From Parcubacteria group bacterium (GTDB lineage Bacteria; Patescibacteriota; Minisyncoccia; UBA6257; Colwellbacteraceae), in assembly GCA_041649615.1 (NCBI GenBank), contig JBAZMT010000001.1, positions 90,981 to 154,980 on the forward strand: a stretch of DNA of 64,000 nucleotides. Reading direction: 5' to 3'. Shown piece by piece: positions 23,463-58,525 of this stretch. The notes under the pieces were generated by a model, which was not told where the DNA came from, did no database searches, and saw nothing but the letters and a program-made list of their open reading frames with translations. The first letter of the stretch is position 1, and every line of letters begins with the position of its first letter. A program made the translations under genes and the position numbers.

Positions 23463-23606
23463 AGGATAAAACTAAGGGGCAATTACAACCCTACCCAAAA
23501 GCAGAAGAAACAACCCAATCTTCAACCGACAAGACTTCTCGGAAGGCGGGTGTTAGCGTGCGCTAAGTGCTTAAAGCAGGCAAACAAAGCGGGCGTTTCA
23601 AAATAA
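23415..23606 (+). CDS. rpmB: ribosomal protein L28 (internal Met MRQCEICGK taken as start)
   Basis: CEICGKGG...NPNLQPTRLLGRRVLACAKCLK matches L28 Zn-ribbon family. Confidence 0.7.
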   Translation: MRQCEICGKGGIMRRQRIKLRGNYNPTQKQKKQPNLQPTRLLGRRVLACAKCLKQANKAGVSK

Positions 23607-23640
23607 TAAAATCCCGAGCAAAGTGCTCGGGATTTTTGTT
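23607..23640. terminator. bidirectional hairpin terminator between convergent rpmB and deacetylase gene
   Basis: AAAATCCCGAGC-AAAGT-GCTCGGGATTTT with flanking A/T runs. Confidence 0.5.
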
Positions 23641-24643
23641 AGTAATACTGGGGAATATCGTTCGGAAACCATTTGAACGGCATTCCGCAAGCTTCTATGT
23701 AGTCCTTGAAATCCAGGGTCTCTATACTACGCTCGTTTATAAAACGCAAAAGATAATAGAGATACGAGAAACCGTACTGCTCCGTATACCGCTTGAACTC
23801 GCTCGTTTTGGCAACCGCTTGCGATTTAGGATTATTGACGAGCAAGTTATAGAGATCTACCGACTCAAACATGTCGCCCGTGAGCGTAGAGAAGCCGACT
23901 TTTGACTGCGCGAGCCCGAATTGGTCAATGGGTTTTTCGCCTACGCGATGATGGTTGATTTTCACCTGGGACCGATGATAGCTATAGCCCATCTTCGCTA
24001 CCTCAAAGGCCGTTTTTCCGTCATACATGGCGAGCGGAGTTTTAACGTCCAGAGTTATCTTATTCTCTTTAAAGAGATGCAAGTATAACTTGAGCGGATT
24101 CCACACGCCGTATTTCTCAGCCGATTCCGGATAAGCTTTTGGGTCGCCAGCGAGATTAAATATTTTCTGAACCTCTTCAACCATCCAGATGTGAGCTTTG
24201 TGGCCGTACTCGCCCTTTACATCTTGCGAGACGATGATCGATGACGTGTAAATACGAACCTGTTCCACAAGATAGGCCTCCACTTTTTCCTTAGGCCACG
24301 ATTTCTTCGCGTCTGCCAATTTTTCAAACCAATGATCGGCAAAAGGTCCGAATACGGGTTTTTGTCTCACGCCTACCGCCCAAAGAGCGGCTTCGGCTTC
24401 TTTTTTCCGACTTGTTGAGCAAGGAGTCATAAAGACGACTACAACCGATTTGCCTTGCGCGAGATAAATCGGAATGACAGCTCCCAAATAAAGTTGGTCG
24501 TCATCACTGTGACAAGCGATGATCATCACGTCCGCGTGATGCGGTTCTTCCCAGTTGTACGAGTCGTCGGCCAGAGCAACGGCTTGAAAAAGCGCGAGTA
24601 TCAGCACAAGCGCCAGAACAATGGAAACAACAGACTTCTTCAT
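23639..24643 (-). CDS. secreted PIG-L/LmbE-family deacetylase-like protein
   Basis: signal peptide MKKSVVSIVLALVLILALFQAVALA; MIIACHSDDD (AHPDDE-like), GHKAH. Confidence 0.5.
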   Translation of the reverse strand: MKKSVVSIVLALVLILALFQAVALADDSYNWEEPHHADVMIIACHSDDDQLYLGAVIPIYLAQGKSVVVVFMTPCSTSRKKEAEAALWAVGVRQKPVFGPFADHWFEKLADAKKSWPKEKVEAYLVEQVRIYTSSIIVSQDVKGEYGHKAHIWMVEEVQKIFNLAGDPKAYPESAEKYGVWNPLKLYLHLFKENKITLDVKTPLAMYDGKTAFEVAKMGYSYHRSQVKINHHRVGEKPIDQFGLAQSKVGFSTLTGDMFESVDLYNLLVNNPKSQAVAKTSEFKRYTEQYGFSYLYYLLRFINERSIETLDFKDYIEACGMPFKWFPNDIPQYY

Positions 24644-24732
24644 AACAATTCCCCCTATTTCACCCTAAAAATATTTTTAAAGATGCTCCAGATTAACGAT
24701 AAAATCGGCTTTTTGTCAATTCAAAAATTTTT

Positions 24733-24803
24733 GTCGGGCTGCCGGGAATTGAACCCGGGTCGCACCCACCCCAAGGGTGTATACTGCCGTTATACTACAG
24801 CCC
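24733..24803 (-). tRNA. tRNA-Pro (anticodon GGG)
   Basis: cloverleaf: acceptor CGGGCUG/CAGCCCG (C1:G72, A73), anticodon stem CACCC/GGGUG, loop UUGGGGU, T-arm CCGGG-UUCAAUU-CCCGG; no encoded CCA. Confidence 0.75.
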
Positions 24804-24843
24804 GTCAAAAGCCAATATACATCAAAGTACTTTTTAATCCAAC

Positions 24844-24873
24844 AAAAACCGCTCCTTTTTGGAGCGGTTTTTG
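24844..24873. terminator. bidirectional hairpin terminator
   Basis: AAAAACCGCTCC-TTTTT-GGAGCGGTTTTT. Confidence 0.5.
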
Positions 24874-25106
24874 ATTGTCTCGCCTTCGTATAGATTTCCC
24901 CGGCTTGCGCCAGATTGGTGAGCCTCAATCGCAGTCCACGGACTACAATGATTCGGTTCTCCTTTTAAAAATCACATGATCCGGAATCTAATGAGCGAGC
25001 GAGACAACTTAATTATATCGCCAGAGGATTCGCTCGCAATCCAAGTAAAATAGGCGAAAACGAGCATGAGGGAAAATTATCCACAAGCGAAAAAATAAGG
25101 AATGAG

Positions 25107-25724
25107 TTATTCCAGTATTCCGTCAAGATTTACGTCGTAGAGTATCGCTTCGTTAACGAGGCGGTAATCTTGAAGTTCTTCAGGCTTAAACCATAAGGCT
25201 ATTTCCTTCTCCGCTTCTTCCGGTGTGCTCGAAGCGTGCAGTAAATTCCTTACGGCTCGCTTGTCAATGTCTGCAAGCTCATAGGAATCAATGGTAAAGT
25301 CCCCTCTTATAGTGCCCACATCCGAGGTAAAAGGTTCCGTGGCGCCCGTGATCTTTCTAATAATGCCTGTCGCGTGCATTCCTTGCCAAACCATGGCGAC
25401 AACCGGGCCGGAAGAAAGATATTTCTTTAAATATCCCAAAACGATTTCGGTAACCTTCAAAGGGTCTTCCGAAGGAGGAGTTTTTCCTTGCGCTTTATAG
25501 GCATTAATCGTTTTAACCCCGGTTTTCATTCTCCATTCGGGATCAATCAAGTAGTGCTTCTCCGCGAATTCGGGCGTGGGGATGAGCATCTTAAGCCCAA
25601 CGAGTTTCAATCCCGTTCGTTCGTAACGCTTTATTATTTCGCCGATAAGCCCTCTTTCTACGCCGTCCGGTTTTACAACGACAAGAGATCTTTCGTTTTT
25701 CATCCTATCCGATATTTCTGCCAT
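25107..25724 (-). CDS. ndk: nucleoside diphosphate kinase with ~35-aa internal insertion
   Basis: SLVVVKPDGVERGLIGEII, catalytic His in NLLHAS; 205 aa vs ~140 typical. Confidence 0.8.
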   Translation of the reverse strand: MAEISDRMKNERSLVVVKPDGVERGLIGEIIKRYERTGLKLVGLKMLIPTPEFAEKHYLIDPEWRMKTGVKTINAYKAQGKTPPSEDPLKVTEIVLGYLKKYLSSGPVVAMVWQGMHATGIIRKITGATEPFTSDVGTIRGDFTIDSYELADIDKRAVRNLLHASSTPEEAEKEIALWFKPEELQDYRLVNEAILYDVNLDGILE

Positions 25725-25744
25725 ATTTTTGTTTTCTCTTTTTA

Positions 25745-27115
25745 CTACTTTTGGTCAGTATTAAGCAAGTGATCTATGCGGTTTATGTCTCTCGGGAAAA
25801 GGGTCGCTTCTTTCACGTTGCCAAGTTCCAACAGTTTCTGCGTGAGACGTTCCAGCCCCATGCCAAAACCGCCGTGCGGAGGAAGACCGTATTTGAAAGC
25901 CTGAAGATAAAAAGAAAAGTTTTCCGGATTTAGTCCTTTTTCCTTCATGGAGGCGACAAGGGCATCGTAGTCGTGAATACGCTCGGCTCCCGTCGTTATT
26001 TCTATTCCGCGGAATAAAAGATCAAATCCCTTGGTGTAGGCCGGATCACTTTCATCGCGATAAGTGTAAAAAGGGCGTTTTTCCGTCGGAAAATGGGTAA
26101 TGAAAATAAAATCGGAATTAAATTTTTCTTTTGAGTAAGCGCAAAGCCAGCGTTCGTGTTCCGGCTCCAGGTCCGGTTCTTCGGTGCAATCGTTTCCGGT
26201 TTCATCACTAATGAGTTTTTGGGCTTCCCGCAAAGTCATTTTGGGAATTTCATCGGGAACGGCTGGAATTTCGGCATTTAATAATTTGAATTCGGCGACA
26301 CATTTTTCCTTGAGTTCGCCTTCAAGGTATTTCAAAAAGGCGTTTTCTATGGCCATCACGTCCGTATGGTCTTTTATGAATCCCATTTCAATGTCCAAGG
26401 AAGTGTATTCGTTCAAGTGACGGGAAGTGCTGTGTTTTTCCGCGCGATAAACGTTTCCCACCGTAAATACCCGCTCAAACACGCCAACCATTATCTGCTT
26501 GTAAAGTTGAGGGCTCTGCGCAAGATGAGCCGTATGACCGAAATATCCGACTTCAAACGTATTTGCTCCTCCTTCAGCGTCGTCGCCGATAAGTTTCGGT
26601 ACTTGGATTTCGGTGAAATTTTCGTTCCTAAAGAATTCCCTGAAAGCTTCCGCCACGACCGCTTGTACCTTAAATGTGGCCTGCGACTTTGTTCTTCTTA
26701 AAGTAAGAGGTAAATAATCAAGATAGGTATCAAGATTCAGCTCCGCGTCAGATTCAAAAGGAATTTCTTTGGCTTCGGAGAGCACTTCAAGTTCTTTTAT
26801 TTCAATTTCCAAGGCGCCGTTCGGTTCCGTCTCGTTTACCATCTTTTCCGGACGCGCGTTAACGAGTCCTTTAACCCTAATCACCCATTCCGGACGAAGG
26901 GCAGAAGCCAATTCGTGAACGGCTTTTTTTTCGGGGAGGGCCACCATTTGAACCTTACCCGTCCGGTCCCGAAGATCAATGAATATCAGTTTTCCGTGGT
27001 CTCTACGGGCGTTAACCGAACCTTCAAGAATCACTTCATGCCCGATAAGTTCGTTCAATTCCGAGGTTAAATTGCGCATTTTTTTCAGTATAAGCCGAGA
27101 AAGGGCTCTAATCAA
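25745..27115 (-). CDS. aspS: aspartyl-tRNA synthetase, archaeal/eukaryotic type (possibly non-discriminating; AsnRS not excluded)
   Basis: N-terminal OB fold, motif 2 RAEKHSTSRHLNEYTSLDIEMGF, C-terminal PHGGFGMGLERL...LFPRD. Confidence 0.65.
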   Translation of the reverse strand: MIRALSRLILKKMRNLTSELNELIGHEVILEGSVNARRDHGKLIFIDLRDRTGKVQMVALPEKKAVHELASALRPEWVIRVKGLVNARPEKMVNETEPNGALEIEIKELEVLSEAKEIPFESDAELNLDTYLDYLPLTLRRTKSQATFKVQAVVAEAFREFFRNENFTEIQVPKLIGDDAEGGANTFEVGYFGHTAHLAQSPQLYKQIMVGVFERVFTVGNVYRAEKHSTSRHLNEYTSLDIEMGFIKDHTDVMAIENAFLKYLEGELKEKCVAEFKLLNAEIPAVPDEIPKMTLREAQKLISDETGNDCTEEPDLEPEHERWLCAYSKEKFNSDFIFITHFPTEKRPFYTYRDESDPAYTKGFDLLFRGIEITTGAERIHDYDALVASMKEKGLNPENFSFYLQAFKYGLPPHGGFGMGLERLTQKLLELGNVKEATLFPRDINRIDHLLNTDQK

Positions 27116-31390: not shown

Positions 31391-32854
31391 CTATTCGTCG
31401 TTTATTTCGTTCTTTTCCGCCTTGATATCGGATGAAGATTCGTCCGAATGCATTGCTTTGTCAAGAGCGGCGCGAAGATCGTCCATTACCACCTCTCTTT
31501 TCGGTTTTACGGGCCGAAGGATTTTTTCAAGCGGGAGTTCGGTTCTACGCGCGATTCTTTCCTCGGTCTTTTCATTATTGTCTTCCCAACGTTCCATTAT
31601 CTTTTTTTCTATCTGCGCTCTCGGCATACCGTATTTATTCCGACTGGTCTCAATTATCATATCTTTCACCGAATTCTCCCCTTCTCTGTGAGAAAGGAAA
31701 TCAAGATTACGCGCCGAGAAGGGTCTTGAGGCGATGCCGTCTATCATAAGTTTGATGTAAAAATGATGTTTACCCGTGTTTACAAGATCAGTTGCCATAA
31801 ATTCGGGAGAGAATTCTTTTTCCAAAAATTCAGCGTCTTCGGCGCCGACCCTGAAGGCGATGAGCGTACCGACGTTTCCGAAGATGGCTGGACGCACCGT
31901 TTCCGAGAGCTGTTCAATGTATTGATGGGCAAGAATGAGACTTAACCTGTATTTGCGAGCTTCGGAGAGAATGACCGCAAAAGAATCGGTGGAAAAATTT
32001 TGAAATTCGTCTATATAGAGGAAAAAATCCTTTCTTTCAAATTCGGAAGTGTCTATTCGGCTCATGGCCGCTTGCTGAAGTTTCGTGATCAGCATGGCTC
32101 CCAAAAGAGCGGAATTGTCTTCTCCGATTTTTCCGTGAGAAAGATTGGCAATCAAAATTTTTCCGTCATCCATCACGCTTCTCATATTCACGGACGATTT
32201 CGGCTGACCGATGATATTCCTGATTAAAGGATTCGCGATAAACTGACCTACTTTGTTTTGAATGGCGGCAACCGCTTCTGAAGCATATCTGTCCGTATAT
32301 TTGCCGAATTCGTTAAGCCAAAAGTTTTTGACCACCGGATCTTCCAAGATAGCGGTGATTTTTTCCCTGAAACGCTTATCCGTGAGCATTTTCATCACGT
32401 CTAAGAGCGTAGAGTTCGGAAATTCCAAAAGGGCGAGCAAAGTATTGTTCAAGATGTATTCCATTCTCGCCGACCAGGCGTCAACCCATATTTTTTTGAA
32501 AACGCCCATCATGCCGGAAGCGATGAGATGTCTGAAGCTTCCTTCTACGCCTTCAAGCGGATTGAAACCGATCGGGTGATCAATATCCGCCGGATTGAAA
32601 TAGATAACGTCGTCAATGCGTTCCGGAGGAACGAAATCAAGCATTTTTTCCGCAAATTGACCGTGCGGATCAATAAGACCGACTCCTTTGCCGTTTCGGA
32701 TGTCTTCGGCCACCATATTTTCCATCATGGTGGTTTTACCCATACCTGTTTTTCCGATCAGGTACATGTGCCTGCGGCGATCGTCCACCTTAATGCCAAA
32801 GCGTTCTTCCCGATTCCTGAAACTGGTTTTTCCAAAAAAATTAACTTCTTCCAT
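31391..32854 (-). CDS. FtsK/HerA/TraD(VirD4)-superfamily P-loop ATPase without TM segments
   Basis: Walker A IGKTGMGKTT followed ~20 aa later by LIDPHGQF (HerA/TrwB-like DPxG), C-terminal YIDEFQNF and SEARKYRLSLILAHQYIEQL...FRVG (TraG/TraD/HerA C-terminal pattern). Confidence 0.6.
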   Translation of the reverse strand: MEEVNFFGKTSFRNREERFGIKVDDRRRHMYLIGKTGMGKTTMMENMVAEDIRNGKGVGLIDPHGQFAEKMLDFVPPERIDDVIYFNPADIDHPIGFNPLEGVEGSFRHLIASGMMGVFKKIWVDAWSARMEYILNNTLLALLEFPNSTLLDVMKMLTDKRFREKITAILEDPVVKNFWLNEFGKYTDRYASEAVAAIQNKVGQFIANPLIRNIIGQPKSSVNMRSVMDDGKILIANLSHGKIGEDNSALLGAMLITKLQQAAMSRIDTSEFERKDFFLYIDEFQNFSTDSFAVILSEARKYRLSLILAHQYIEQLSETVRPAIFGNVGTLIAFRVGAEDAEFLEKEFSPEFMATDLVNTGKHHFYIKLMIDGIASRPFSARNLDFLSHREGENSVKDMIIETSRNKYGMPRAQIEKKIMERWEDNNEKTEERIARRTELPLEKILRPVKPKREVVMDDLRAALDKAMHSDESSSDIKAEKNEINDE

Positions 32855-32865
32855 AGGGCTTTAAA

Positions 32866-34161
32866 TTATCCAATAGGCAAATTCGCCGGAGGGGCGCCTT
32901 TCTTTGATTCAAGCTGACCTAGACCCGGAGCCGCAACGCGTCCGATAGGCGGGTGGAAAATGGTCGCGAGTTCTTCCACGTTCATGAGCGAAGGTTCAAG
33001 CGCTTTCTTAAACATTGACTGCACGTTCGTCAAAAGAGAAAGACTTCTTTCAATGTAGCTTTTATATATTTCTTTTTTCTTTCTTAAGATTATTTCTTTT
33101 TTGCGAGGAACGAAAAATCGCGGAGGAATGGTCATAGTGAGAGCGGCCGGACGCATGCCGTTTAGGTTCTGCGTATTGAACTGCTGGAAAGCGCTCATTG
33201 CAGCCTTGAAATTGCTGCCGCTGAAACTATCTTTCTTGTCTATGTAAATTATCCTCGTAATAGTTTCAAAAGCCAGTTTGGACGCTTTAGCGTCTACCGC
33301 TCTGATTATTTCGGCGTCTTGAGCGGAAACGCTTTTGGGTTTTTCTTCGGGTTTGTCACTCCACTCGGGAAGTTTTACGGGCGCCAAAACGGCCTCTCTA
33401 GTAAATTCCAAAAGTCCGCCAACTACGCCTTTCTTTTCTTCTTTCTTTCCGGACTTTTCAGCGATGACTTTTTTAGCCGCTTCTTTCAATTTGTCGCCGG
33501 CCGGACGAACAAGAGTTTGTATCCACATCCGCTCGTCCGATTTCAGACTGGACATTACTTCGGCTAAAATGGCAATCGGATCAACTTCCTGTTCTTCATA
33601 TTTTCTTTCGCCGAAGAAGTAAGGATAGGTTTTCATGGGATAAGCGCTGTCTTTGCCCAAGATCATATCGGCTCCCATAATGTCATACTCCTCATTCGGA
33701 AGATCGGGCGGAAATTCTTTTATGTAATCTTTATCCGCTTCAAATATTTCCGCTCCCGGATATTCGGCGAATATGGCCGATTCCACGAGGGCGCGATTCT
33801 TTTTGTTCGTTCTCAAGAAAAACCTGATGCCTTCTCTTGAAGAAATCATTTCGGCGGAAATCGTTTCTTCAAACTGGCCTTCAAGCCATTTTTTTTCCGG
33901 CTTGATACCGAAACTGTATATCTGATAAAAGCTCGCGAATATTTGTTCCATGGCCTTCGGGAAAGTCTCGTTGTCTTTCGGGAATTTGATCTCCAAAAGG
34001 ATGTATTCTATGCCCGAGGCAAATTTATCCTGCGATTCGTCAAGCCACCAATTTTTGAGAAAAATTATGATAAATCTCAAAACCAAAAAGATGGCGATAA
34101 GCGTCAGCGCTCCCAAGACAATGTCGCCAAAGTACTCCTCTAATCCGGAGAGGAACTCCAT
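32866..34161 (-). CDS. N-terminally membrane-anchored protein of unknown function (431 aa)
   Basis: single predicted TM (IVLGALTLIAIFLVLRFIIIFL) then large soluble domain; no recognisable motifs. Confidence 0.3.
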   Translation of the reverse strand: MEFLSGLEEYFGDIVLGALTLIAIFLVLRFIIIFLKNWWLDESQDKFASGIEYILLEIKFPKDNETFPKAMEQIFASFYQIYSFGIKPEKKWLEGQFEETISAEMISSREGIRFFLRTNKKNRALVESAIFAEYPGAEIFEADKDYIKEFPPDLPNEEYDIMGADMILGKDSAYPMKTYPYFFGERKYEEQEVDPIAILAEVMSSLKSDERMWIQTLVRPAGDKLKEAAKKVIAEKSGKKEEKKGVVGGLLEFTREAVLAPVKLPEWSDKPEEKPKSVSAQDAEIIRAVDAKASKLAFETITRIIYIDKKDSFSGSNFKAAMSAFQQFNTQNLNGMRPAALTMTIPPRFFVPRKKEIILRKKKEIYKSYIERSLSLLTNVQSMFKKALEPSLMNVEELATIFHPPIGRVAAPGLGQLESKKGAPPANLPIG

Positions 34162-36028: not shown

Positions 36029-37253
36029 AGGTCATCGCGATGTTTATCAAGATACCGACAAGGAGGGTTAAGGCAAATCCTTTAACGAAGCTTGAGGTAA
36101 AGAAGTAAAGGATAAGAGCGGTTAAAACGGTGCCGACGTTTGAATCTCTGATGGAAGACCAGGCAAGACGGAATCCCGATTCTATCGCCTGCGTGTTTTG
36201 CGTTCCGCGGCGAAGTTCTTCTTTAGCCCGTTCAAAGATAAGGATATTGGCGTCAAGCGCCGCTCCGATAGAGAGAATAAAACCGGTGATGCCCGACAAA
36301 CTCATCGTGAATCCAGGGGTGAGTTTGAAAATGGCAAGAGAAAAAATAACGTAAAGGATAAGGGAAAGGCCGGCGACAATGCCGCGTTTGCGGTAAATGG
36401 CAATGATAAAAGCGATAATCAAAAGAATGCTTATCACGCCGGCGACAAGAATACGTCCCAACGAGTCTTCGGCCGCGGTCGCGTTTACCGTGCGCTGGTT
36501 GCCGAGTTTAATCGGCGCAGAAAGGGCGCCGGCATTGAACCTTTCAACGAGTTTCTGCGCCGAATCAAGAGTTATTCCTTCGCCGGATATTTGCGCTTTG
36601 CCGCCGATTATTTTCTCTTGGACGACCGGCGCGCTTATGGGGGCACCGTCAAGAAAAATGGCTACTTGTTTGCCTATGTTACGCGCCGTAATTTCTTCAA
36701 ACAGTTTCGCGCCTTCATCGTTAAATTCCAAACTTACAACCGGTTGAGATACTCCTTGAGAACTGGTGGCAACGGAAGCGCGTTTGATGTGCCTGCCGGA
36801 GAGTTCGGTCGGGTCGCAAACAATCGAATCTTCCGTAATTACGCAATTTTCCCTGAAATCAAGAAAAGGGGTTTCCCCTATCTCTTTGACAGCATCAGAT
36901 ATTTCACTGATGCCCGCGAGTTCAACAAGAAGCTGTCTCGAGTCTCCCTTCTCAATGACGCGAACTCTCGGTTCCGAAACGCCGTAAAGGTCAATTCTTT
37001 TTTCAATAACGTCTTTTAGTCCGTTAGTAACAGCCGTGAAGTCGGCTCTGTCAACGCCCGTAAGGTCAATGTCATAGGTGAGCGCCGTTCCTCCGACAAG
37101 ATCAAGACCGAGTCTCCAAGGCAAAAATCTGTTTAAGAAAACATCGGGAACTTTGACCCCGGAGACGACAGTTCCCGGTTCGGGCAAAACAAAAAGAGAA
37201 GAAGCGACCGCGAGCAGAACGAGCGCAGAGATAAAAATTAGTTTGTGTTTCAT
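35967..37253 (-). CDS. secD: protein-export membrane protein SecD
   Basis: 428 aa; GLDLVGGTALTY motif, periplasmic domain plus 6 TM. Confidence 0.8.
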   Translation of the reverse strand: MKHKLIFISALVLLAVASSLFVLPEPGTVVSGVKVPDVFLNRFLPWRLGLDLVGGTALTYDIDLTGVDRADFTAVTNGLKDVIEKRIDLYGVSEPRVRVIEKGDSRQLLVELAGISEISDAVKEIGETPFLDFRENCVITEDSIVCDPTELSGRHIKRASVATSSQGVSQPVVSLEFNDEGAKLFEEITARNIGKQVAIFLDGAPISAPVVQEKIIGGKAQISGEGITLDSAQKLVERFNAGALSAPIKLGNQRTVNATAAEDSLGRILVAGVISILLIIAFIIAIYRKRGIVAGLSLILYVIFSLAIFKLTPGFTMSLSGITGFILSIGAALDANILIFERAKEELRRGTQNTQAIESGFRLAWSSIRDSNVGTVLTALILYFFTSSFVKGFALTLLVGILINIAMTYVVTRNLLRVFPGKQNNKQA

Positions 37254-37273
37254 ATAAAATTACTTGGTAATTG

Positions 37274-37350
37274 TAGTCCGTCCAGCGGTTCTCCCGACCC
37301 TCTTGAACGTTCGAGTCCGGATGGGCGGAATCCTTCGCTTCGCGGAGGAT
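37274..37350 (-). repeat. partial copy (copy 4) of tRNA-adjacent conserved repeat, immediately 3' of tRNA-Lys
   Basis: minus-strand ...UUCCGCCCAUCCGGACUCGAACGUUCAAGAGGGUCGGGAGAACC matches 5' ~45 nt of the core seen at 46221, 57935, 58399; preceded by imperfect inverted copy of tRNA-Lys 3' half. Confidence 0.45.
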
Positions 37351-37425
37351 TGGTCCGCCCAGGAGGACTCGAACCTCCAACTTTCTGCTTAAAAGGCAGC
37401 TACTCTACCATTGAGTTATGGGCGG
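37351..37425 (-). tRNA. tRNA-Lys (anticodon UUU), CCA encoded
   Basis: acceptor CCGCCCA/UGGGCGG, anticodon loop CUUUUAA, T-arm GGAGG-UUCGAGU-CCUCC, 3' ACCA. Confidence 0.85.
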
Positions 37426-38519: not shown

Positions 38520-39536
38520 TTATCTCAGTAAAACCACTTCTTTGCTTTTCGGTTCAAAATAAACCTCCGCAAATTTTATCGCAAGGATCAGCTGATAAAT
38601 TAGAAACGATAGTAACGCGACAAGCCATCCCAAGAGCCAGAACGCTCCGCGAACGGCGGTAAAAATAATTATCGTTGCAATGAGAGCCAGATAATTTGAG
38701 GGAATCGTTTCAATGACGTCCTGGAACTTGTCAGTGGCCGCGTTTCTAAAATTTTCCTCAAAGGAAGCGTCAAGATCAATGTTTAATCCGATGTCGTCTC
38801 GAAGCATTGTTTCATAATCCGCAATTTTTTGATCAATTAGTCTCTCTTTCTGGCCTTCCGGCATCAGGGCAAATTCCACGGCGTCCGGTCTTGCAAGGGA
38901 TTGCCTCGCCGAGATCGTCAGAAAATCGCGAAAACTCATATTTAGAGTAAATCCCGGAGCGTAATAACCAATCACGGGCGAGGAAACGGAAATCATCCCT
39001 CTCACAAATCGTTCCGAGAATAAATCTTCCGCTTTAAAATTCCATCCATAGCTTACGGCTATCGCGAGAGCAATAATGGTAAAGGCTCTCGCAAGCACTT
39101 TGCCGGAAAATTTGGTGAAACTTACTCGCAATGAATTATCCAGTTCTCTTTTTCCGCGCCATATTCCTTCCGTAAGAATAATGACGGAGACAGCCGCAAG
39201 AATAATTATGGGGATAAACGGAATTCTGCCGAAAATGAACAAAGGGAGCGCTAAAAGTACGGAAGAAAACAACGAAACCAAAAAAAGAAACTTTCTGGCT
39301 TTAACAAGAACGGGGACGAGAGTGATAAACGAAGCAAAAACGATTCCTGTCACGATAGCGGAGAAGAAAGACCAGGCAAACAAAGCGTAACCGAACAAAA
39401 AAGCGAAAGCCGCGGTAACGGCGATAACCGCGAAAACTTTAATAGGAGAATAATCCGTTTCGGATATTTCTTCGTTACGCCTGGCCGCCTTCTTTGTTTT
39501 CTCCGTTTTCTCCTGAGTCGGAATTGTTTCCGCCAT
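38520..39536 (-). CDS. polytopic membrane protein of unknown function inserted between dnaK and dnaJ
   Basis: 338 aa, ~6 predicted TM helices, no known motifs. Confidence 0.3.
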   Translation of the reverse strand: MAETIPTQEKTEKTKKAARRNEEISETDYSPIKVFAVIAVTAAFAFLFGYALFAWSFFSAIVTGIVFASFITLVPVLVKARKFLFLVSLFSSVLLALPLFIFGRIPFIPIIILAAVSVIILTEGIWRGKRELDNSLRVSFTKFSGKVLARAFTIIALAIAVSYGWNFKAEDLFSERFVRGMISVSSPVIGYYAPGFTLNMSFRDFLTISARQSLARPDAVEFALMPEGQKERLIDQKIADYETMLRDDIGLNIDLDASFEENFRNAATDKFQDVIETIPSNYLALIATIIIFTAVRGAFWLLGWLVALLSFLIYQLILAIKFAEVYFEPKSKEVVLLR

Positions 39537-46154: not shown

Positions 46155-46162
46155 CAGTTTAA

Positions 46163-46196
46163 AAGACTATCCTGATGGTTTTTGGATAGTTTTTTA
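46163..46196 (+). terminator. hairpin plus U-run immediately after tRNA-Glu
   Basis: AAGACUAUCC-UGAUGGUUUUU-GGAUAGUUUUUU. Confidence 0.4.
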
Positions 46197-46211
46197 AAAT
46201 TCAGTTTTTGT

Positions 46212-46347
46212 AAGGGGAATTGAACGTTGAGTGGGGTCGGGAGAACGCTTTAAGCGGTCTCCCGTGTAGGAAGATATTAGAAACCGAGGGTTTCTAAAAC
46301 GGAGCGAGCCTAGAGCGAGCGAGTAGTTCAATTCCCCTTGGGGCTGC
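46212..46347 (+). repeat. tRNA-adjacent conserved structured repeat, copy 1 (14-bp perfect terminal inverted repeat; 3' end duplicates tRNA-Glu 3' end)
   Basis: AAGGGGAATTGAAC...core GAACGUUGAGUGGGGUCGGGAGAACGCUUUAAGCGGUCUCCCGUGUAGGAAGAUAUUAGAAACCGAGGGUUUCUAAA...GTTCAATTCCCCTTGGGGCTGC (21/22 identical to tRNA-Glu 3' end). Confidence 0.6.
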
Positions 46348-46923: not shown

Positions 46924-48540
46924 CTACTTCAATTTGTCGGGAGCAACGCCGTAATACGAGAGTGTGAATTCGGCGAGTTCTTTAAAAGCGGGAATGACGG
47001 ACGCTCCCGCGAGGGGGTTTCCTTCGGGTTCGTCTATTCTTATCAAAATGGAAAATTTGGGATCATAGGCGGGAGCGAATCCAACATAAGTATTGATATA
47101 AGCGTCTTTATAACCGCCTTTTACCAAATCGGGTACGAGAGCCGTTCCGGTTTTTCCCGCCACGGAATATCCCAAAATGTCCGCTAATACGTTTTTCTTA
47201 ACCGCCGAGACCATCATGTCCGTAATTTTTTTCGCGGTTTCTTCCGAGATCGGTTTGCTTTCGATTTTTGATTCGCCCACGGTAATACGAGGGGCCATCA
47301 TAACGCCTCTGTTTGCGATGGCGTTTACGGCCGTAAGCATCCGAATGGGCGAAATAGATATTCCCTGTCCGTAAGAAGCGGTCGCGTAACTGATGTCATT
47401 CCCGTTTATGAGAGACTTAATGGAACCGGTAATTTCTCCCGGAAGATCAATGCCGGTGGTATGCGTAAGACCGAATTTCTCCGCATAATCAAGAAAAGTG
47501 TTTTTGCCCATTTTTTTGACGGCAAAAACGGTACCCGTGTTTATTGATTGTTCTATCACTTCGGTCATCGTAAGCGTTCCGTGCGCTTTTTTATCCCAGT
47601 TTTGAATCGTTCGGCCGTTAATCGTAAGCGAGCCTTCATCAATATAAGTCGTTTCCGGCGTAACGCTTCCCGAATCAATGGCTCCCGCCATAGTCACGAT
47701 TTTAAAAACCGAACCGGGTTCGTAGACTTCTTGAACGGCCGGATTCATGTAATCCGACATTTTCGCCGAGCCGTAATTATTCGGATCAAAAGTCGGCACG
47801 GCGGCCATGGCTTTAATCTCGCCGGTTTTCGGATCGGAGACGATGACAACTCCGCTTTTCGCGTTGAATTTATGCACCGCGTCGGCAAGTATTTTCTCGG
47901 CGCGCGCTTGAATCGTCTGGTCAATCGTAAGATACACGTCTTTGCCGTCTTTCGGCACGATAAAAGTGTCTCCGGACGCCTCGCCGGGAACTCCCGTCAA
48001 TTCTTCGTTATAAAAAGACTCTATGCCATATTGTCCGACTTCATTCGCCACAAATCCCAAGACATGAGCCGCCAAAGAAGCGTACGGATAATATCTTTTT
48101 GGTTTTTCACCCACTTTGACCCCGGGAATATCGAGATTTCTCACTTTATCGGCGACTTCATCCGAAGCGATTTTTAAGAGTTCTTCAAACGGATCGTCTT
48201 TTTTTTGGAGTTTCTGCATTATTTCTTCCGCCGGCACCTTGATCACTTCTTCAAGGCGCGCCGCGGTTTCGCTCAAATCCGTTCCCGCTTTAGCCAGTTT
48301 TTCGGGTTCGCAATAGATGAAGGGATAATTTTTCTTTATGGCCACCGGAACCGGTGTGCCGTTTTTATCGGTCATCATGATGTTGCCCCGCGCCGGATCA
48401 AGCGAGCTATTCAAAATCCGCGAGGCCGCTTCGGCGGCGTAATAATCCCCTTTCTGTATCTGTAAGTTAAAAAAACGGACGCCAAGCGATCCGTATAGCA
48501 AGCAGAACAGAGTTACTACTGCAATGAAGCGAATACCCAT
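46924..48540 (-). CDS. penicillin-binding protein 2/FtsI-type transpeptidase
   Basis: 538 aa; N-terminal TM, dimerisation domain, transpeptidase SxxK, SxN, KTG-like motifs. Confidence 0.85.
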   Translation of the reverse strand: MGIRFIAVVTLFCLLYGSLGVRFFNLQIQKGDYYAAEAASRILNSSLDPARGNIMMTDKNGTPVPVAIKKNYPFIYCEPEKLAKAGTDLSETAARLEEVIKVPAEEIMQKLQKKDDPFEELLKIASDEVADKVRNLDIPGVKVGEKPKRYYPYASLAAHVLGFVANEVGQYGIESFYNEELTGVPGEASGDTFIVPKDGKDVYLTIDQTIQARAEKILADAVHKFNAKSGVVIVSDPKTGEIKAMAAVPTFDPNNYGSAKMSDYMNPAVQEVYEPGSVFKIVTMAGAIDSGSVTPETTYIDEGSLTINGRTIQNWDKKAHGTLTMTEVIEQSINTGTVFAVKKMGKNTFLDYAEKFGLTHTTGIDLPGEITGSIKSLINGNDISYATASYGQGISISPIRMLTAVNAIANRGVMMAPRITVGESKIESKPISEETAKKITDMMVSAVKKNVLADILGYSVAGKTGTALVPDLVKGGYKDAYINTYVGFAPAYDPKFSILIRIDEPEGNPLAGASVIPAFKELAEFTLSYYGVAPDKLK

Positions 48541-48818
48541 TGCGGATTTTTATCAAGAACCAGACCTTTCTCTTCGGCGATAGTTTCAAGCGCTTGCGGA
48601 TCGGTTATTTTGAAAAGGGTGTTCTTTAATTCGGCGTTTGCCGTGAGTTCGGTTTCGGTAGAATTCTTAAGAGAACTTATTTCGTGCTTCAGACTGACTA
48701 TCTTCGAATAAATACAGCCGCAAAAAGTAATGGCGCCGATAAGCAGTCCGCCGGCAAGAAATATAGCCGCTTTCCAGGCTGATTCTTTTCTTTTGTCGTT
48801 TGGTCTTAAAATCGTCAT
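48516..48818 (-). CDS. ftsL: FtsL/DivIC-like small bitopic division protein
   Basis: 100 aa; single TM then coiled-coil; position between rsmH and PBP as in dcw clusters. Confidence 0.4.
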   Translation of the reverse strand: MTILRPNDKRKESAWKAAIFLAGGLLIGAITFCGCIYSKIVSLKHEISSLKNSTETELTANAELKNTLFKITDPQALETIAEEKGLVLDKNPQWVFASLQ

Positions 48819-49688
48819 TTAGTTCATTATCGCCGCTCTTAATTTCGCCGATCTTGCTTTCGGATTTATTTTTATTTCCGAATATTTGGGGGATGTCGGT
48901 TTTTTCGTAAGTAAAGAAACAATTCCCGCGCGCGCCATTTCTTTGAATTTGTTTTTAACGATTTTGTCTTCAAGAGACTGGAAAGTTATTATCGCCGCTC
49001 GTCCGCCGGGTTTAAGGATTTTTGGAAGCGATTCCAAAACGTTTTCCAAGCTTTGGAGTTCTTTATTCGCAAAAATCCTCAAAGCCAAGAACGTCCTTGT
49101 GGCCGGATTGATCCGCCCGTGTTCGTAATGCGACGGTAAAACGGAGCGGATAATTTCCACGAGTTTGCCGGTCGTTTCAATCGGATTTTTTCTTTCCGCT
49201 TTCCAAATAGCTTCGGCGATAACATGAGCGTATCTTTCTCCCGAAACGGAAATAATTTCTTTCAAGTCTTCCCTGCTCAATCTCCTTAAAGTTTTATAGA
49301 GAGGTTCGTCTTCGTCGCTATAGGTCATCAAGAGCGGCTCATCGTTTAAAAAAGAAAATCCTCTTCCAGAATCAAGTTGATCGGAAGAAAAGCCCAAATC
49401 CAAAAGTAATCCGTCCGCGAGCGGAAGAGATTTACTTTCCAGTATTTCGGGTAAGCGGGCAAAGTTCGCGTTTACGAGAATCACTTTCACGCCGGGAATG
49501 TTAATCTCGGTCTTTTGAATAACGTTTTCGTCTCTATCTACGCCAAGAAGAGTTCCTCCGGGAGAAATCAAACGAGCGATTTCTCTCGCGTGTCCGCCGG
49601 CGCCCAAAGTTCCGTCTATGATAAACTCCCCATTTTTTGGAGAAAGCGCCTCCATAGCTTCATCCATCATTACGGAAATATGGCTCAT
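48819..49688 (-). CDS. rsmH: 16S rRNA m4C1402 methyltransferase RsmH (MraW)
   Basis: IDGTLGAGGHA SAM-binding start, 289 aa. Confidence 0.9.
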   Translation of the reverse strand: MSHISVMMDEAMEALSPKNGEFIIDGTLGAGGHAREIARLISPGGTLLGVDRDENVIQKTEINIPGVKVILVNANFARLPEILESKSLPLADGLLLDLGFSSDQLDSGRGFSFLNDEPLLMTYSDEDEPLYKTLRRLSREDLKEIISVSGERYAHVIAEAIWKAERKNPIETTGKLVEIIRSVLPSHYEHGRINPATRTFLALRIFANKELQSLENVLESLPKILKPGGRAAIITFQSLEDKIVKNKFKEMARAGIVSLLTKKPTSPKYSEIKINPKARSAKLRAAIMN

Positions 49689-50116
49689 AATCCGAGTTCG
49701 CTCATTTTTTCGGCGATTTCTTCCGATCTTGATTCGGTTTCGGTTTTATAAGCATTCCATGAATTCTTATCCCAAATTTCCGCCCGGTTGTAGAGACCAG
49801 CCACAACTATCTCTTTTTCCAGTCCAGCATATTTCCGCAAATAATCAGGAATCAATATTCTGCCTTGAGCGTCTATCTCACAATCGGAAGCACCAGCAAG
49901 CATAAGACGGGAAAAAGCGCGTGAATTCGCCGCCGTCAGGGGAAAAGAAATTATTTTTTCGGCGAGTTTGTTCCATTCTTCAACGGGAAAAAGAAAAAGG
50001 CATTTGTCCAAGCCTCTCGTGACGATGGCGCCGCCGGAAAGCTGGTTCCTAAATTTGGCGGGCACGGCAACCCTACCTTTTACATCCATGTTATGTTGGA
50101 ATTCACCAATGAACAT
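49685..50116 (-). CDS. mraZ: transcriptional regulator MraZ
   Basis: two DXXXR repeats (MDVKGRV..., IDAQGRI...). Confidence 0.85.
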   Translation of the reverse strand: MFIGEFQHNMDVKGRVAVPAKFRNQLSGGAIVTRGLDKCLFLFPVEEWNKLAEKIISFPLTAANSRAFSRLMLAGASDCEIDAQGRILIPDYLRKYAGLEKEIVVAGLYNRAEIWDKNSWNAYKTETESRSEEIAEKMSELGL

Positions 50117-50118
50117 TT

Positions 50119-50137
50119 TCCACCACTTTTCCCCACT
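50119..50137 (-). promoter_or_regulatory. putative MraZ operator: GTGGG-N5-GTGGT direct repeats immediately upstream of mraZ ATG
   Basis: minus-strand AGTGTGGGGAAAAGTGGTGGAAAATG. Confidence 0.4.
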
Positions 50138-50147
50138 ATACTAGAGA

Positions 50148-50177
50148 ATTATATCCCTCTCCGCCAAAAAGGGTCAA
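50148..50177 (-). promoter_or_regulatory. sigma-70-like promoter for mraZ operon: TTGACC-18-TATAAT
   Basis: minus-strand TTGACCCTTTTTGGCGGAGAGGGATATAAT. Confidence 0.45.
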
Positions 50178-50280
50178 AGGCGGGTTTTACAAGCTTTTTT
50201 CTGCAAAAAATGAACTTATCCACAAATATGCTCGTTGTTCGGCGCGGTAGGCCGAAAAAACTGTGGAGAACTCAAAATCT

Positions 50281-50308
50281 GTAATTAGTGACGATCGTCA
50301 CTAATTAC
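50281..50308 (-). terminator. 28-nt perfect palindrome (12-bp stem, GAUC loop) just after tgt stop; likely terminator or operator
   Basis: GTAATTAGTGACGATCGTCACTAATTAC followed on minus strand by AGAUUUUGAG. Confidence 0.45.
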
Positions 50309-50313
50309 AAAAA

Positions 50314-51462
50314 TCAAATAATCCCTTTTTTAATTTTTTTTCTTATCTCCGCAACGTAGTTGTTGAAGTAATGCACATTATGGAAGGTTAAAAACCGAAG
50401 TCCCGTGATTTCATGCACTCGGATAAGGTGGGAAAGATACCCTTTCGTATGAGAATTGCAAACGAAGCAATTGCAAGCGGGGTCAAGCGGTTCTTTGGAC
50501 GCTTTTCCTTCCAGATATTTGGTTTTAGTCAAATCAATTTTACCCTTGGAAGTAAAAGCGTTTCCGTGGCGGGCGTAATGAGTCGGAACCGTACAATCAA
50601 AAGTATCCACTCCCGCAGCGGCAATGAGAGCCATATCTTCAAGAAAACCGATTCCCAAAAGATGGCGAGGTTTGTCATCGGGGAGTTCTTTCGTCGTCCA
50701 ACCGATGATGTCCGCCATTTTCTTTTTATCGGATCCGTATTCCCCTCCTATGCCGAATCCGTCAAAAGGACGAGAACCGATGAATTTGGCGCTTTCGCTT
50801 CGCAGACTCTCGTATTTTCCTCCCTGGACTATTCCGAAAAGCGCTTGATTGCTCTTTTTGGCCTTGAGACAAGCGTCCGCCCAACGGTGAGTTTTCTTTA
50901 GCGATTCAGCCGTATATTCCAGGCTCGCGGTCGGAACGGTAGCTTCATCAAAGGCAAAAATAATATCCGCGCCTATATTCTCTTGTATTTTTATGGACTC
51001 TTTCGGCCCCATAAAAATTTTCTTTCCGTCCACATAGGAAGTGAATTCCACGCCATCGTCCGTGATTTTTAAAAGTCTCGGTTGAGCTCCTTTGATTATC
51101 ACCTCTTCCGAATCGTGTTTCATGATTTTGCTCACGCCGTAGTCGTGGCCGAAACCGAGGCTTAAAACCTGAAATCCGCCGGAATCCGTCATTACGGGAA
51201 CTTTAATGCCCGAAAATTTGTGTATTCCCCCGTTATTTTTAACAAGTCTTTCTCCGGGCTTAAGATGCAGGTGATAAGTGTTCGCGATAACCATTTGCGT
51301 ACCCGTGGGAATAATTTCCTCGGGAGAAAGCGTTTTAATGGTCGCCTGGGTCGCCACCGGAACGAAACAGGGAGTTTCCACCTCACCGTGCGGAGTTTTA
51401 AGAACGCCCAGGCGGGCGTTCGTTTTTTTTGATTTCTTTAATATCTTAAAACTTATCATCAC
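50314..51462 (-). CDS. tgt: queuine tRNA-ribosyltransferase
   Basis: 382 aa; TIM-barrel TGT with C-terminal Zn site CxCxxC...H. Confidence 0.9.
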   Translation of the reverse strand: MMISFKILKKSKKTNARLGVLKTPHGEVETPCFVPVATQATIKTLSPEEIIPTGTQMVIANTYHLHLKPGERLVKNNGGIHKFSGIKVPVMTDSGGFQVLSLGFGHDYGVSKIMKHDSEEVIIKGAQPRLLKITDDGVEFTSYVDGKKIFMGPKESIKIQENIGADIIFAFDEATVPTASLEYTAESLKKTHRWADACLKAKKSNQALFGIVQGGKYESLRSESAKFIGSRPFDGFGIGGEYGSDKKKMADIIGWTTKELPDDKPRHLLGIGFLEDMALIAAAGVDTFDCTVPTHYARHGNAFTSKGKIDLTKTKYLEGKASKEPLDPACNCFVCNSHTKGYLSHLIRVHEITGLRFLTFHNVHYFNNYVAEIRKKIKKGII

Positions 51463-52358: not shown

Positions 52359-52392
52359 ATTACCTGTATATTAAGTCTTTGAGGAACCCGTT

Positions 52393-53103: not shown

Positions 53104-53138
53104 TATTTAATGATAAGCGCAAAACGCAAAACGCAAAA

Positions 53139-54401: not shown

Positions 54402-54445
54402 ATGGCCCTCATTTTAGTCTCCTAAAGCACTAATAAAAAGCCGCC

Positions 54446-54706
54446 TTAAGCGGGCAGTTCTGTCTTTATACGGTATTTGCGGCCATGTTTGACTTCCCCG
54501 TCTATTAAATATGCGGGCTTGTTCTGTCTGTTCGTCACAGGGCCGGTAGAAGAAAAGTGCAGCCGACCACAAGTGTCGCATGCATAGGCAAATGCGGCAG
54601 ACTGGCATCCTGTCCTCAAAGTCGTTCGGTTTTTTATATCGGCCACGTTCACATGCCCCAAGCATCCTTTTTCGGCGTAATTGAAAGTCTTCTCGTTCGC
54701 TTCCAC
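54446..54706 (-). CDS. small Cys-containing hypothetical protein
   Basis: 86 aa; GCLGH...GCQ...CDTCG; alternative overlapping frame 54414..54665 judged less protein-like. Confidence 0.25.
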   Translation of the reverse strand: MEANEKTFNYAEKGCLGHVNVADIKNRTTLRTGCQSAAFAYACDTCGRLHFSSTGPVTNRQNKPAYLIDGEVKHGRKYRIKTELPA

Positions 54707-54788
54707 CTTATTTTCCTCCTCAAAAATTTAGAAATATGCTGTAGCCTTGATACCATATTTTGACTTGAACGTCAAATAAAAAGACCGT

Positions 54789-55073: not shown

Positions 55074-55116
55074 TAAGCTCGCCTCCTTTCCCTGATTTGG
55101 AATGTACTTAACCTTT

Positions 55117-55380: not shown

Positions 55381-55384
55381 GTTA

Positions 55385-57923: not shown

Positions 57924-57925
57924 CA

Positions 57926-58095
57926 CGAGGATTTGAACGTCGAGTGGGGTCGGGAGAACGCTTTAAGCGGTCTCCCGTGTAGGAAGATATTAGAAACCGA
58001 GGGTTTCTAAAGCAAAGCGAATCCGTTTCCGCCAATCGACGGGTAGCGGAAACGGGGGCGGATGAGCGAGCAGTGAAAATCCGAGAGGTGGCTCA
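57926..58095 (+). repeat. tRNA-adjacent conserved structured repeat, copy 2 (3' end duplicates tRNA-Thr 3' end)
   Basis: starts CGAGGAUUUGAAC (revcomp of T-loop GUUCAAAUCC); core 78/80 identical to copy 1; unique 10-bp hairpin CCGUUUCCGC/GCGGAAACGG; ends AAAATCCGAGAGGTGGCTCA (19/20 = tRNA 3' end). Confidence 0.6.
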
Positions 58096-58359: not shown

Positions 58360-58383
58360 TATCCCGCTTGCGGGATATTTTTG
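58360..58383 (+). terminator. Rho-independent terminator directly after tRNA-Tyr
   Basis: UAUCCCG-CUUG-CGGGAUA-UUUUUG. Confidence 0.5.
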
Positions 58384-58390
58384 TTTAGAA

Positions 58391-58525
58391 GAGGATTCGA
58401 ACGTTCAAGGGGGTCGGGGAAATCTTCTAAAGATTTCCCCGTGTAGGAGAATATTAAGAACCGAGGGTTCTTAAAGAGGAGCAAGTGAAGACGAGTGAGC
58501 AGTGAAATTTCTCCCCTGTGCACCA
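58391..58525 (+). repeat. tRNA-adjacent conserved structured repeat, copy 3 (diverged; 3' end duplicates tRNA-Tyr 3' end incl. CCA)
   Basis: starts GAGGAUUCGAAC (revcomp of T-loop GUUCGAAUCC); core ~75% identical to copies 1/2 with compensatory changes in both hairpins; ends CCCCTGTGCACCA. Confidence 0.6.

Follow-up and report, generated by a model that had tools for sequence, protein, structure and literature searches.

What occupies the spacer between the tRNA-Lys(UUU) gene and secD in the Parcubacteria group bacterium contig JBAZMT010000001.1, and why does it carry an inverted piece of the neighboring tRNA next to part of a repeat that also stands behind other tRNA genes? We analyzed this locus within a stretch of 64,000 nucleotides (positions 90,981 to 154,980 of the contig; assembly GCA_041649615.1), referred to here as the window, in which three full copies of the repeat (copies 1 to 3) lie on the plus strand. 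A first-pass annotation made from the sequence alone had proposed that the minus-strand spacer holds a fourth, truncated copy. We conclude that this copy 4 is probably an inert relic with an internal deletion and that it belongs to a multicopy family of cassettes located directly 3' of tRNA genes in a Parcubacteria clade. Its membership in the family is confirmed; the term truncated needs correction, since a 12-nt remnant of the 3' arm survives and the loss is therefore internal rather than a truncation at the 3' end.

Read on the minus strand, the spacer begins with a short hairpin, followed by the imperfect inverted copy of the tRNA-Lys T-loop and acceptor region that the annotation had described (Table 1). 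This 5' arm, tccgcccatccggactcgaac (37329-37309), is the reverse complement of tRNA-Lys GTTCGAGTCCtccTGGGCGGA with three mismatches, all within the T-stem, and a repeat search delimited inverted arms of 27 nt (37303-37329 and 37354-37380) that are 81% complementary. Together, the 3' half of tRNA-Lys and the inverted arm fold into a single long hairpin of -55.3 kcal/mol (z = -4.1; 0 of 200 shuffles). The 5' core of the repeat, GTTCAAGAGGGTCGGGAGAACC (37308-37287), comes next, also as annotated. Its match to copy 3 spans 26 nt at 92%, and those to copies 1 and 2 span 31 nt at 81% and 77%, respectively. Past the core, the annotation had seen only divergent sequence running straight into the secD ATG. 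Its coordinates hold, but CTGGACGGACTA (37285-37274) equals the tRNA-Lys 3' end CTGGGCGGACCA at 10 of 12 positions, a level of match seen at 5 sites in 128 kb, and 20 nt of native leader, resembling the leader at the empty site of a relative (L034), separate this remnant from the start codon. Neither a promoter nor a terminator was called between tRNA-Lys and secD. The open reading frame (ORF) 37102..37380 is indeed spurious, as the annotation had stated: it overlaps the tRNA-Lys gene, the cassette remnant, and the SecD N terminus in another frame (127 nt offset), and SecD itself starts with the MK(N/H)K start kept among its orthologues.

The similarity of copy 4 to the repeat core is real and well beyond chance. 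Because part of the match is merely the complement of the T-loop, we excluded that part and limited the scoring to the 23 nt that follow GAAC, using a weight matrix trained exclusively on family members from other genomes. The copy 4 core reached 27.8 bits, compared with 13.0 for the next real site in the window and with maxima in 200 shuffled windows that averaged 11.0 (standard deviation, 2.8; highest, 19.0). Alignment of copy 4 to the full copies, which the annotation had named as a check, gave local z-scores of 11.2 to copy 3 and 8.6 to copy 1, equaled by none of 300 shuffles. The chance-level similarity that would have refuted the annotation is therefore not what is observed. With a covariance model built from 24 full copies, copy 4 scored 16.2 bits (E ~0.03) and was the top non-self match in the window with filters off; copies 1 to 3 scored 110 to 138 bits, and the low value for copy 4 reflects the absence of about three-quarters of the model. 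The placement of copy 4 is that of a family member, 3' of a tRNA gene and in the same orientation, with an inverted 5' arm and a direct 3' arm from tRNA-Lys. It is not intact. About 100 nt, from the loop of core hairpin P2 to the 3' strand of the T-stem, have been lost, so that only the 5' strand of P2 is present and hairpins P3 and P4 are absent. We regard copy 4 as inert because neither P2 and P3 nor the closing helix P1 can form. In its present state, the tRNA-Lys-secD spacer keeps only a long inverted repeat that involves the 3' half of tRNA-Lys.

Orthologous spacers, the other check that the annotation had suggested, support its idea of an older, partly deleted insertion. The gene order grpE-dnaK-x-dnaJ-tRNA-Lys-secD-secF is kept in loci L008 to L011 (10-kb flanks), and its dnaJ-tRNA-Lys-secD-secF part is kept in the other loci. 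A full-length copy of the window type (105.5 bits, E = 3e-24) occupies the spacer in L040/L041 (SecD, 78% identical), where a perfect 58-nt direct repeat, consisting of 3' arm, hairpin, and 5' arm, stands on both sides of the core. The sister locus L008 (SecD, 84%) has the hairpin and 5' arm of copy 4 (36/42, z = 11.2) followed by ~100 nt without similarity to any core, and L039 (SecD, 80%) likewise has the hairpin and 5' arm and no recognizable core. Full-length cassettes of a divergent type are found in L009 to L011 (SecD, 79%), with their own arms, and in L036 (SecD, 68%), with a repeat of ~48 to 57 nt that includes the flanking hairpin. The site is empty in L034 (SecD, 79%; 22 nt from tRNA to ATG), L035 (73%), and L037 (72%). 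Since the spacer is thus full, full with a divergent type, reduced to a remnant, or empty, we conclude that the cassette has been both gained and lost at this site. Occupancy differs even between L009 and L034, which are more closely related to each other (81%) than to the other loci, and the site of copy 1 behind tRNA-Glu(CUC) is empty in both L008 and L009. When L034 (GGCGGA followed by CCACAAATTAT) is compared with L040 (...AAT followed by CCACAAATTAT), the L040 insert falls between the discriminator and the encoded CCA.

The divergent cores of L009 and L036, which we call type B, resemble type A weakly (z = 1.6 to 2.7) and give no model match, and the motifs AACCGAGGG and GAGCGACGGCGA are common to both types. 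On these motifs we treat type B, without proof, as a putative divergent subtype of the family. Its core, ACCGGACTGAAGGTTTTTC..GAAAAACCGAGGGAGGGG..GAGCGACGGCGA, lies at L009:9860-9985 and L036:1325-1445; AACCGAGGG is present as in type A, but the sequence that pairs with AAACC is upstream instead of downstream. The L008 spacer was also considered as a decayed core of type A or type B, and no significant similarity to either was found (z < 1).

Table 1. Features of the tRNA-Lys-secD spacer and of the three full cassette copies in the window.
Feature	Position	Strand	Description and basis
tRNA-Lys(UUU) gene	37351..37425	-	CCA encoded; anchor of copy 4; ARAGORN and Rfam RF00005 (70.1 bits)
Copy 4, spacer hairpin	37330..37350	-	atcctccgcgaagcgaaggat, 21 nt, without U-tract; apex of the long palindrome; sequence, fold, no terminator called, kept in the closest relative (L008)
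Copy 4, 5' arm	37309..37329	-	21 nt; inverted tRNA-Lys T-loop, T-stem 3' strand, and acceptor 3' strand; repeat search, fold
Copy 4, core fragment	37286..37308	-	gttcaagagggtcgggagaaccg, 23 nt; family positions ~16-38, i.e., 5' junction and P2 5' strand only; weight matrix, repeat matches, covariance-model match 37249-37323
Copy 4, 3'-arm remnant	37274..37285	-	ctggacggacta, 12 nt, against tRNA-Lys 3' end ctgggcggacca; shuffle p = 1.2e-4
Native secD leader	37254..37273	-	caattaccaagtaattttat, 20 nt; compared with empty site of L034 (GGCGGAcca followed by caaattatattcaatcaccaaaATG); SecD Pfam domains
secD ATG	37253-37251	-	
Copy 1, after tRNA-Glu(CUC)	46156..46347	+	Terminator-like spacer, 5' arm, core (model match 46211-46340, 137.5 bits), 3' arm 46326-46347
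Copy 2, directly abutting tRNA-Thr(UGU)	57925..58095	+	109.6 bits; extra P4 hairpin; 3' arm 58077-58095, the last 19 nt of the tRNA
Copy 3, after tRNA-Tyr	58360..58525	+	Terminator-like spacer, 5' arm, core 58388-58516 (132.8 bits), 3' arm 58514-58525 CCCTGTGCACCA

Copies 1 to 3 reveal what an intact member looks like. Each starts with GGAYTYGAAC, the reverse complement of a T-loop, and ends by repeating, in direct orientation, the 3' end of the tRNA that precedes it; in copy 1, the 3' arm is identical to tRNA-Glu over 46333-46347. The direct-repeat spans that the three share in a repeat search are 46216-46307, 57929-58020, and 58393-58484. In general, an intact cassette consists of a spacer, usually with a terminator-like hairpin, a 5' arm, a core of ~100 to 150 nt, and a 3' arm. 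The 5' arm is the reverse complement of the T-loop and the T-stem 3' strand, sometimes of the entire 3' half; it tracks the T-loop variant of its own tRNA in 25 to 27 of 27 copies, and the T-stem 3' strand as well, fading past ~14 nt, although copy 4 is among those in which it reaches the discriminator. The 3' arm duplicates the tRNA 3' end in direct orientation from the T-loop to the discriminator or CCA, in most copies as an exact match of 12 to 22 nt and at most over 71 nt; in several loci, the direct repeat extends past the end of the tRNA and measures 26 nt in L014, 71 nt in L024, and 40 nt or more in L003, where it reaches the contig end. The inverted tRNA copy is thus a regular part of every family member and not peculiar to copy 4. 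No tRNA cloverleaf lies inside the cassettes: ARAGORN and RF00005 call just seven genuine tRNAs in the window.

Several spacer hairpins have 5' strands that resemble the T-loop end and T-stem 3' strand of the adjacent tRNA (window, 37330-37350 and 58360-58382; L007, ~460-495): ATCCTCC after tRNA-Lys, ATCCCGC against ATCCTGC after tRNA-Tyr, and GAGTCC after tRNA-Val. The resemblance may go back to earlier arms nested at these sites or may have arisen by chance. Similarly, TTTTTGAATTGAC, 3' of tRNA-Pro on the minus strand (window, 24700-24732), holds a 7-nt complement of the tRNA-Pro T-loop (GAATTGA) and could be a strongly decayed arm or a chance match.

The covariance model detects at least 31 family copies in the window and in related Parcubacteria assemblies. 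When one genome per GTDB species was scanned with a sequence pattern, 5 loci were detected; all belong to Parcubacteria-type assemblies, among them Candidatus Colwellbacteria, although two are labeled Saccharibacteria. A scan of JGI metagenomes added 22 further stretches, three of which duplicate genome loci. Among the 31 pattern matches from these sources and the window (28 distinct), 30 sit 10 to 142 nt 3' of a tRNA gene on the same strand, and the remaining one is at a contig edge. The host tRNAs have 12 identities (Arg, Ser, Leu, Val, Glu, Gln, Gly, Ala, Asp, Lys, Thr, and Tyr). The annotation's statement that the family is confined neither to one strand nor to one tRNA cluster therefore stands, yet the cassettes are always co-oriented with their own tRNA. 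So far, the family is restricted to Parcubacteria assemblies, the exceptions in name being the two carriers titled Candidatus Saccharibacteria (L005, CAYHSQ010000028; L006, CAZRNY010000009); all other carriers are labeled Parcubacteria or Colwellbacteria, and either these two titles are wrong or the range of the family is wider.

Searches of known collections returned no relatives. At the gathering score, Rfam finds only tRNAs in the whole window, and it finds nothing relevant in 57800-58600 at E <=10; the family is absent from Rfam 15. A scan of IMG/VR with the core pattern GGGGTCGGG...CCCGTGTAGG gave only two identical chance matches in high-GC coding DNA, and copy 1 had no match, in distant mode, among GenBank phages and PLSDB plasmids. 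We found no description of this Parcubacteria cassette family in the literature. Upstream of the 5' arm there is no conserved promoter, only inconsistent AT-rich, -10-like hexamers. Among 40 window ORFs scanned against Pfam (the neighbors of all four copies and the ORFs of 417-10017, 22731-27115, 48516-56811, and 59059-63984), no mobility gene or integrase was found; all matches were to housekeeping families.

Cassettes also occur in tandem. L014, L031 (three units), and L032 hold arrays in which the junction between units consists of 3' arm, spacer, and 5' arm. Many copies lie at contig ends, as expected if such repeats break assemblies. Exact 12-nt copies of a tRNA 3' end were observed 119 to 248 nt 3' of further tRNAs: Lys-CUU, Leu-UAA, Tyr, Gly-CCC, Ala-GGC, Val-GAC, and Met (loci L003:579-652, L004:4966-5050, L006:1053-1136, L022:3258-3329, L028:6438-6509, L029:476-550, and L030:1663-1735). 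Several of these inserts score just 36 to 74 bits with the model or do not match it; the family is thus broader than our search pattern. Truncated cassettes are also found in relatives, some of them interrupted by another hairpin-rich repeat family that is unrelated and absent from the window. Its units, GTCATTCC...GGAATCCAGGTC and GACCCC..GGGGTGAC, abut or truncate tRNA-linked cassettes at L012:5420-5760, L014:1110-1240, L022:~7740-7870, and L031:~3990-4100; in L012, the second repeat begins exactly after the GAAC of a 5' arm.

The core carries the covariation expected of a folded element. RNAalifold places two hairpins, P2 and P3, in the core, with P4 variable, and the pairs were counted in the 31-copy alignment fitted to a model without P1. 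In P2, 96% of cells are paired and 9 of 12 pairs show compensatory changes; the values are 98% and 8 of 9 for P3 and 75% and 7 of 12 for P1, the helix that the 5' arm forms with the GTGAGAT motif and the T-stem 3' strand. These pairing values were reached by 0 of 500 shuffles, and pairing fell to 36 to 56% when the partner was slid by 1 to 3 columns as a control. One P1 pair, between the Y of YGAAC and the R of GTGAR, occurs as C-G in 15 copies, U-A in 5, U-G in 1, and a C-A mismatch in 1; it is informative because its 3' partner belongs to a motif that departs from the tRNA T-loop at both neighboring positions. G-T pairs outnumber A-C pairs in P2 and P3 by 11 to 2, and thus the strand that folds is the tRNA-sense strand. 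P1 also has a conserved tandem G-A/A-G, and GGGGUC, GUGUAGGA, and AACCGNGGGUU at the top of P3 are unpaired and invariant or nearly so. In the modeled fold, the arms close the cassette by a helix that imitates the tRNA T-stem, leaving the acceptor 3' strand as a single-stranded tail.

How might such cassettes work and spread? We propose that an intact cassette would be expressed as a small RNA and that the tRNA machinery could produce its 3' end as it does for a tRNA precursor, given that the closing helix imitates the T-stem and that the 3' tail and the downstream terminator duplicate those of the precursor. Recombination between the directly repeated 3' parts of the tRNA would account for the gain, multiplication, and loss of cassettes, with a core-plus-repeat unit inserted or excised as if in Campbell fashion; the repeat-core-repeat of L040, the hairpin plus arm of L039, and the empty site of L034 are the states that such recombination would be expected to leave. 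The origin of the arms invites two proposals, put forward purely as such: a folded single-strand site of the attC or CTX-phi kind, or template switching at the palindromic T-loop (TTCGAA), either of which would give forward, inverted, and forward tRNA 3' halves. As for copy 4, its remnant is most likely carried passively in a tRNA-Lys-secD co-transcript, given that no promoter or terminator is called in the spacer and that the tRNA abuts the secD leader where the site is empty.

Several points weigh against this account of copy 4 and its family. The production of an RNA from the cassette and the formation of its end rest on inference; most intact copies are separated from the tRNA by a terminator-like hairpin, which makes their co-transcription doubtful, and a promoter of their own is not established, the -10-like hexamers being inconsistent. 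The covariance-model E-value of copy 4 is only ~0.03. The 40 scanned ORFs yielded neither a recombinase nor any other partner, and the proposal does not account for how both arms become specific to a new tRNA. Copy 4 may also be a partial insertion instead of the product of a later deletion. Finally, its hairpin and 5' arm are 86% identical to those of L008, whereas the SecD proteins are just 84% identical; this is the one observation that a pure relic explains poorly, and it hints that part of the relic is kept by selection or gene conversion. In intact cassettes, the hairpin and arm form part of the direct repeat, which fits their conservation, and they could be maintained by gene conversion against the tRNA.

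Other explanations of the locus fare less well. We give almost no credence to the idea that the spacer is ordinary tRNA-flanking sequence whose core match stems from T-loop-like letters alone. Part of the match, GGACTCGAAC, is indeed T-loop complement that any tRNA gene would supply, and the exact 22-mer core has no other site at <=3 mismatches; the idea is refuted by the foreign-trained matrix, which exceeds the shuffle maximum of 19 bits with the T-loop complement excluded, by the full-length, same-type cassette that L040 carries in the orthologous spacer, and by a 3'-arm remnant exactly where the model predicts it. The L008 conservation lends more weight to a retained cis-acting element of the tRNA-Lys-secDF transcript, whose long hairpin would direct processing (for example, by a double-strand-specific cut) or tune secD: the sequence beyond the arm is not conserved in L008, the fold is strong, the arm would be transcribed with the tRNA since the spacer lacks a called terminator or promoter, and L039 likewise retains hairpin and arm without a core. 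We nevertheless consider such an element quite unlikely. It is absent in three relatives, with only the 22-nt tRNA-ATG gap in L034, and its arm has three T-stem mismatches; survival of the hairpin and arm is expected after repeat-mediated loss of the core, because in intact cassettes both belong to the direct repeat, and their conservation might just as well reflect gene conversion against the tRNA.

Two further explanations concern the family as a whole. Integration targeted to a tRNA gene typically leaves a complete tRNA and, farther on, a partial copy of its 3' end that starts in the T-loop, and the cassettes might accordingly be read as attL/attR scars of integrase-driven prophages or islands, deleted almost entirely. 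This is very improbable: the same 130-nt unit, with compensatory hairpin changes, recurs at 12 or more kinds of tRNA in several genomes, and independent deletions would not converge on it; the scanned window ORFs include no integrase; and the phage and plasmid collections yielded nothing beyond the two chance matches in IMG/VR. We are less dismissive of, though still skeptical toward, a cassette that acts at the DNA level and, like attC or the CTX-phi attP, undergoes recombination as a folded single strand, its arms mimicking the duplex of the tRNA gene 3' half and a host tyrosine recombinase inserting it. A single strand exchange would give the observed order of tRNA, element-borne 3' half, spacer, inverted arm, core, and native 3' half; a plain Campbell model with double-stranded DNA gives the inverted arm no obvious role; the fold is strand specific; and the repeat-core-repeat arrangement with its palindromic 58-nt repeat, together with the tandem arrays, resembles cassette arrays. 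Against it, no recombinase is linked to the cassettes and no circular junctions were seen, while the conserved unpaired nucleotides and G-U pairs suit RNA equally well, and the nearest precedent, RtT (see below), is an RNA. An inverton with an invertible promoter was ruled out, all 31 copies having the same orientation relative to the tRNA. We also rejected a transposon-end guide RNA of the TnpB/IS605 type and a retroviral-type primer-binding site, because the left flank corresponds to the T-loop in reverse complement, not as a direct copy, and the arm usually stops short of the tRNA 3' terminus.

Returning to the relic and its family, copy 4 is a fossil produced by ordinary decay, and its value is as evidence on the family. 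Cassettes arrive at one tRNA 3' end, are replaced by subtypes, decay, and vanish, which points to mobile or recombining behavior instead of a fixed gene. It is possible, although we hold the idea only tentatively, that they represent an unrecognized tRNA-templated mobile cassette of candidate phyla radiation (CPR) bacteria, an RNA or single-stranded DNA unit that gains inverted and direct copies of the 3' half of its host tRNA. If so, a new insertion route would be implied, by folded-hairpin recombination or by fold-back or template-switch copying at the palindromic T-loop. Alternatively, the unit would be a functional mimic of the acceptor/T-arm "top half" of tRNA that taps tRNA end processing, CCA addition, or charging. 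In either case, the RtT repeats of Escherichia coli would represent a single, frozen instance of this principle.

RtT RNA (RF00391) corresponds to the 178-bp tyrT/tyrV repeats of E. coli and is, as far as is known, tied to tRNA-Tyr in enterobacteria. To our knowledge, its origin and role have been unclear since the 1970s-90s. In the tyrV-rttR locus of E. coli MG1655 (L038; NC_000913, 1286709-1287328), which RF00391 matches at 134 to 138 bits as a positive control (gathering score, 45 bits), each of three units ends in AATCCTTCCCCCACCACCA, the tRNA-Tyr 3' end from the T-loop. In the RF00391 consensus, the closing helix pairs GGGGAAGG, an inverted T-stem 3' strand, with CCTTCCCC, and CACCACCA is single stranded. 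The parallels with the Parcubacteria cassettes are close: units in tandem directly 3' of a tRNA gene and co-oriented with it, termination in a copy of the upstream tRNA 3' end that starts in the T-loop, and a closing helix from the inverted T-stem 3' strand with a single-stranded acceptor/CCA tail. In contrast, the internal hairpins of RtT are unlike those of the Parcubacteria family, which follows at least 12 kinds of tRNA, has several subtypes competing for one site, and lacks a Tpr-like ORF. Homology to the RtT family was rejected: RF00391 has no match in the window at the gathering score or in 57800-58600 at E <=10, and our family model scores <=7.4 bits on E. coli. The two are analogues rather than detectable homologues, and the family is a new, multi-tRNA variant of an RtT-type architecture. 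A family with the RtT layout that spans many tRNAs and many genomes offers comparative material on how the tRNA 3' half is copied and on the role of a T-stem mimic with a free acceptor strand. Two details of RtT were noted in passing: the E. coli unit has an inverted tRNA-Tyr T-stem 3' strand, GGGGAAGGAT, that is paired with the terminal tRNA copy in the Rfam structure, and GAGAA follows the arm both in RtT (GGATGAGAAGC) and in type B of L009 and L036 (GGACGAGAAC).

Other known systems share fewer traits with the cassettes. tRNA-targeted integrative elements and cis-mobilizable elements (CIMEs), the latter being integrase-less derivatives flanked by attL and attR, also leave a complete tRNA and a displaced direct repeat of its 3' part, have occupied and empty alleles, and accrete in tandem. 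The cassettes differ in their unit size of ~130 to 190 nt, inverted tRNA arm, RNA-type core covariation, use of one core for many tRNAs, and lack of an integrase among the scanned ORFs. Integron attC sites and the CTX-phi attP resemble them in having a palindromic junction element between units and a strand-specific fold, and the 5' boundary of the cassettes, ...YGAAC/GTTRRR, recalls RYYYAAC and GTTRRRY; this is a resemblance only, as the GAAC and GTTRRR motifs are adjacent in the family and not at the two ends of a site, and no IntI or Xer link and no integrase among the scanned ORFs were found. The E. coli 3'ETS-leuZ is likewise a small RNA from the region directly 3' of a tRNA gene. Trailers of that type are single-copy, unrepeated, immobile, released by tRNA processing, and without tRNA-derived arms. 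Miniature inverted-repeat transposable elements (MITEs) and repetitive extragenic palindromic (REP) elements are short, noncoding, multicopy, and structured, and decayed copies are common, as in our family. In contrast, the cassettes have no fixed-length target duplication, their repeats measuring 12, 15 to 22, 26, 40 or more, 58, or 71 nt; they lack terminal inverted repeats of their own, take their arms from the local tRNA, and keep strictly to one position and orientation relative to it. On the practical side, the cassettes break assemblies and yield spurious ORF calls beside tRNA genes.

A few other genes in the window deserve mention. Three ORFs have no Pfam match: 5984-7171 (395 amino acids), 58645-59046 (133 amino acids), and 38520-39536 (338 amino acids). 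A TraG/TrwB-type coupling-protein-like ATPase gene and a DUF8128 gene (31391-34161), named only by synteny with L008 and L009, stand among housekeeping genes between elongation factor P (EF-P) and a sigma-70 region-4 protein, an arrangement kept in L008 and L009. Two MreB/Mbl paralogues (417-1460 and 4942-5952; Pfam E = 1e-118 and 1e-124) lie 3.5 kb apart. The 338-amino-acid ORF keeps its place between dnaK and dnaJ in all syntenic relatives.

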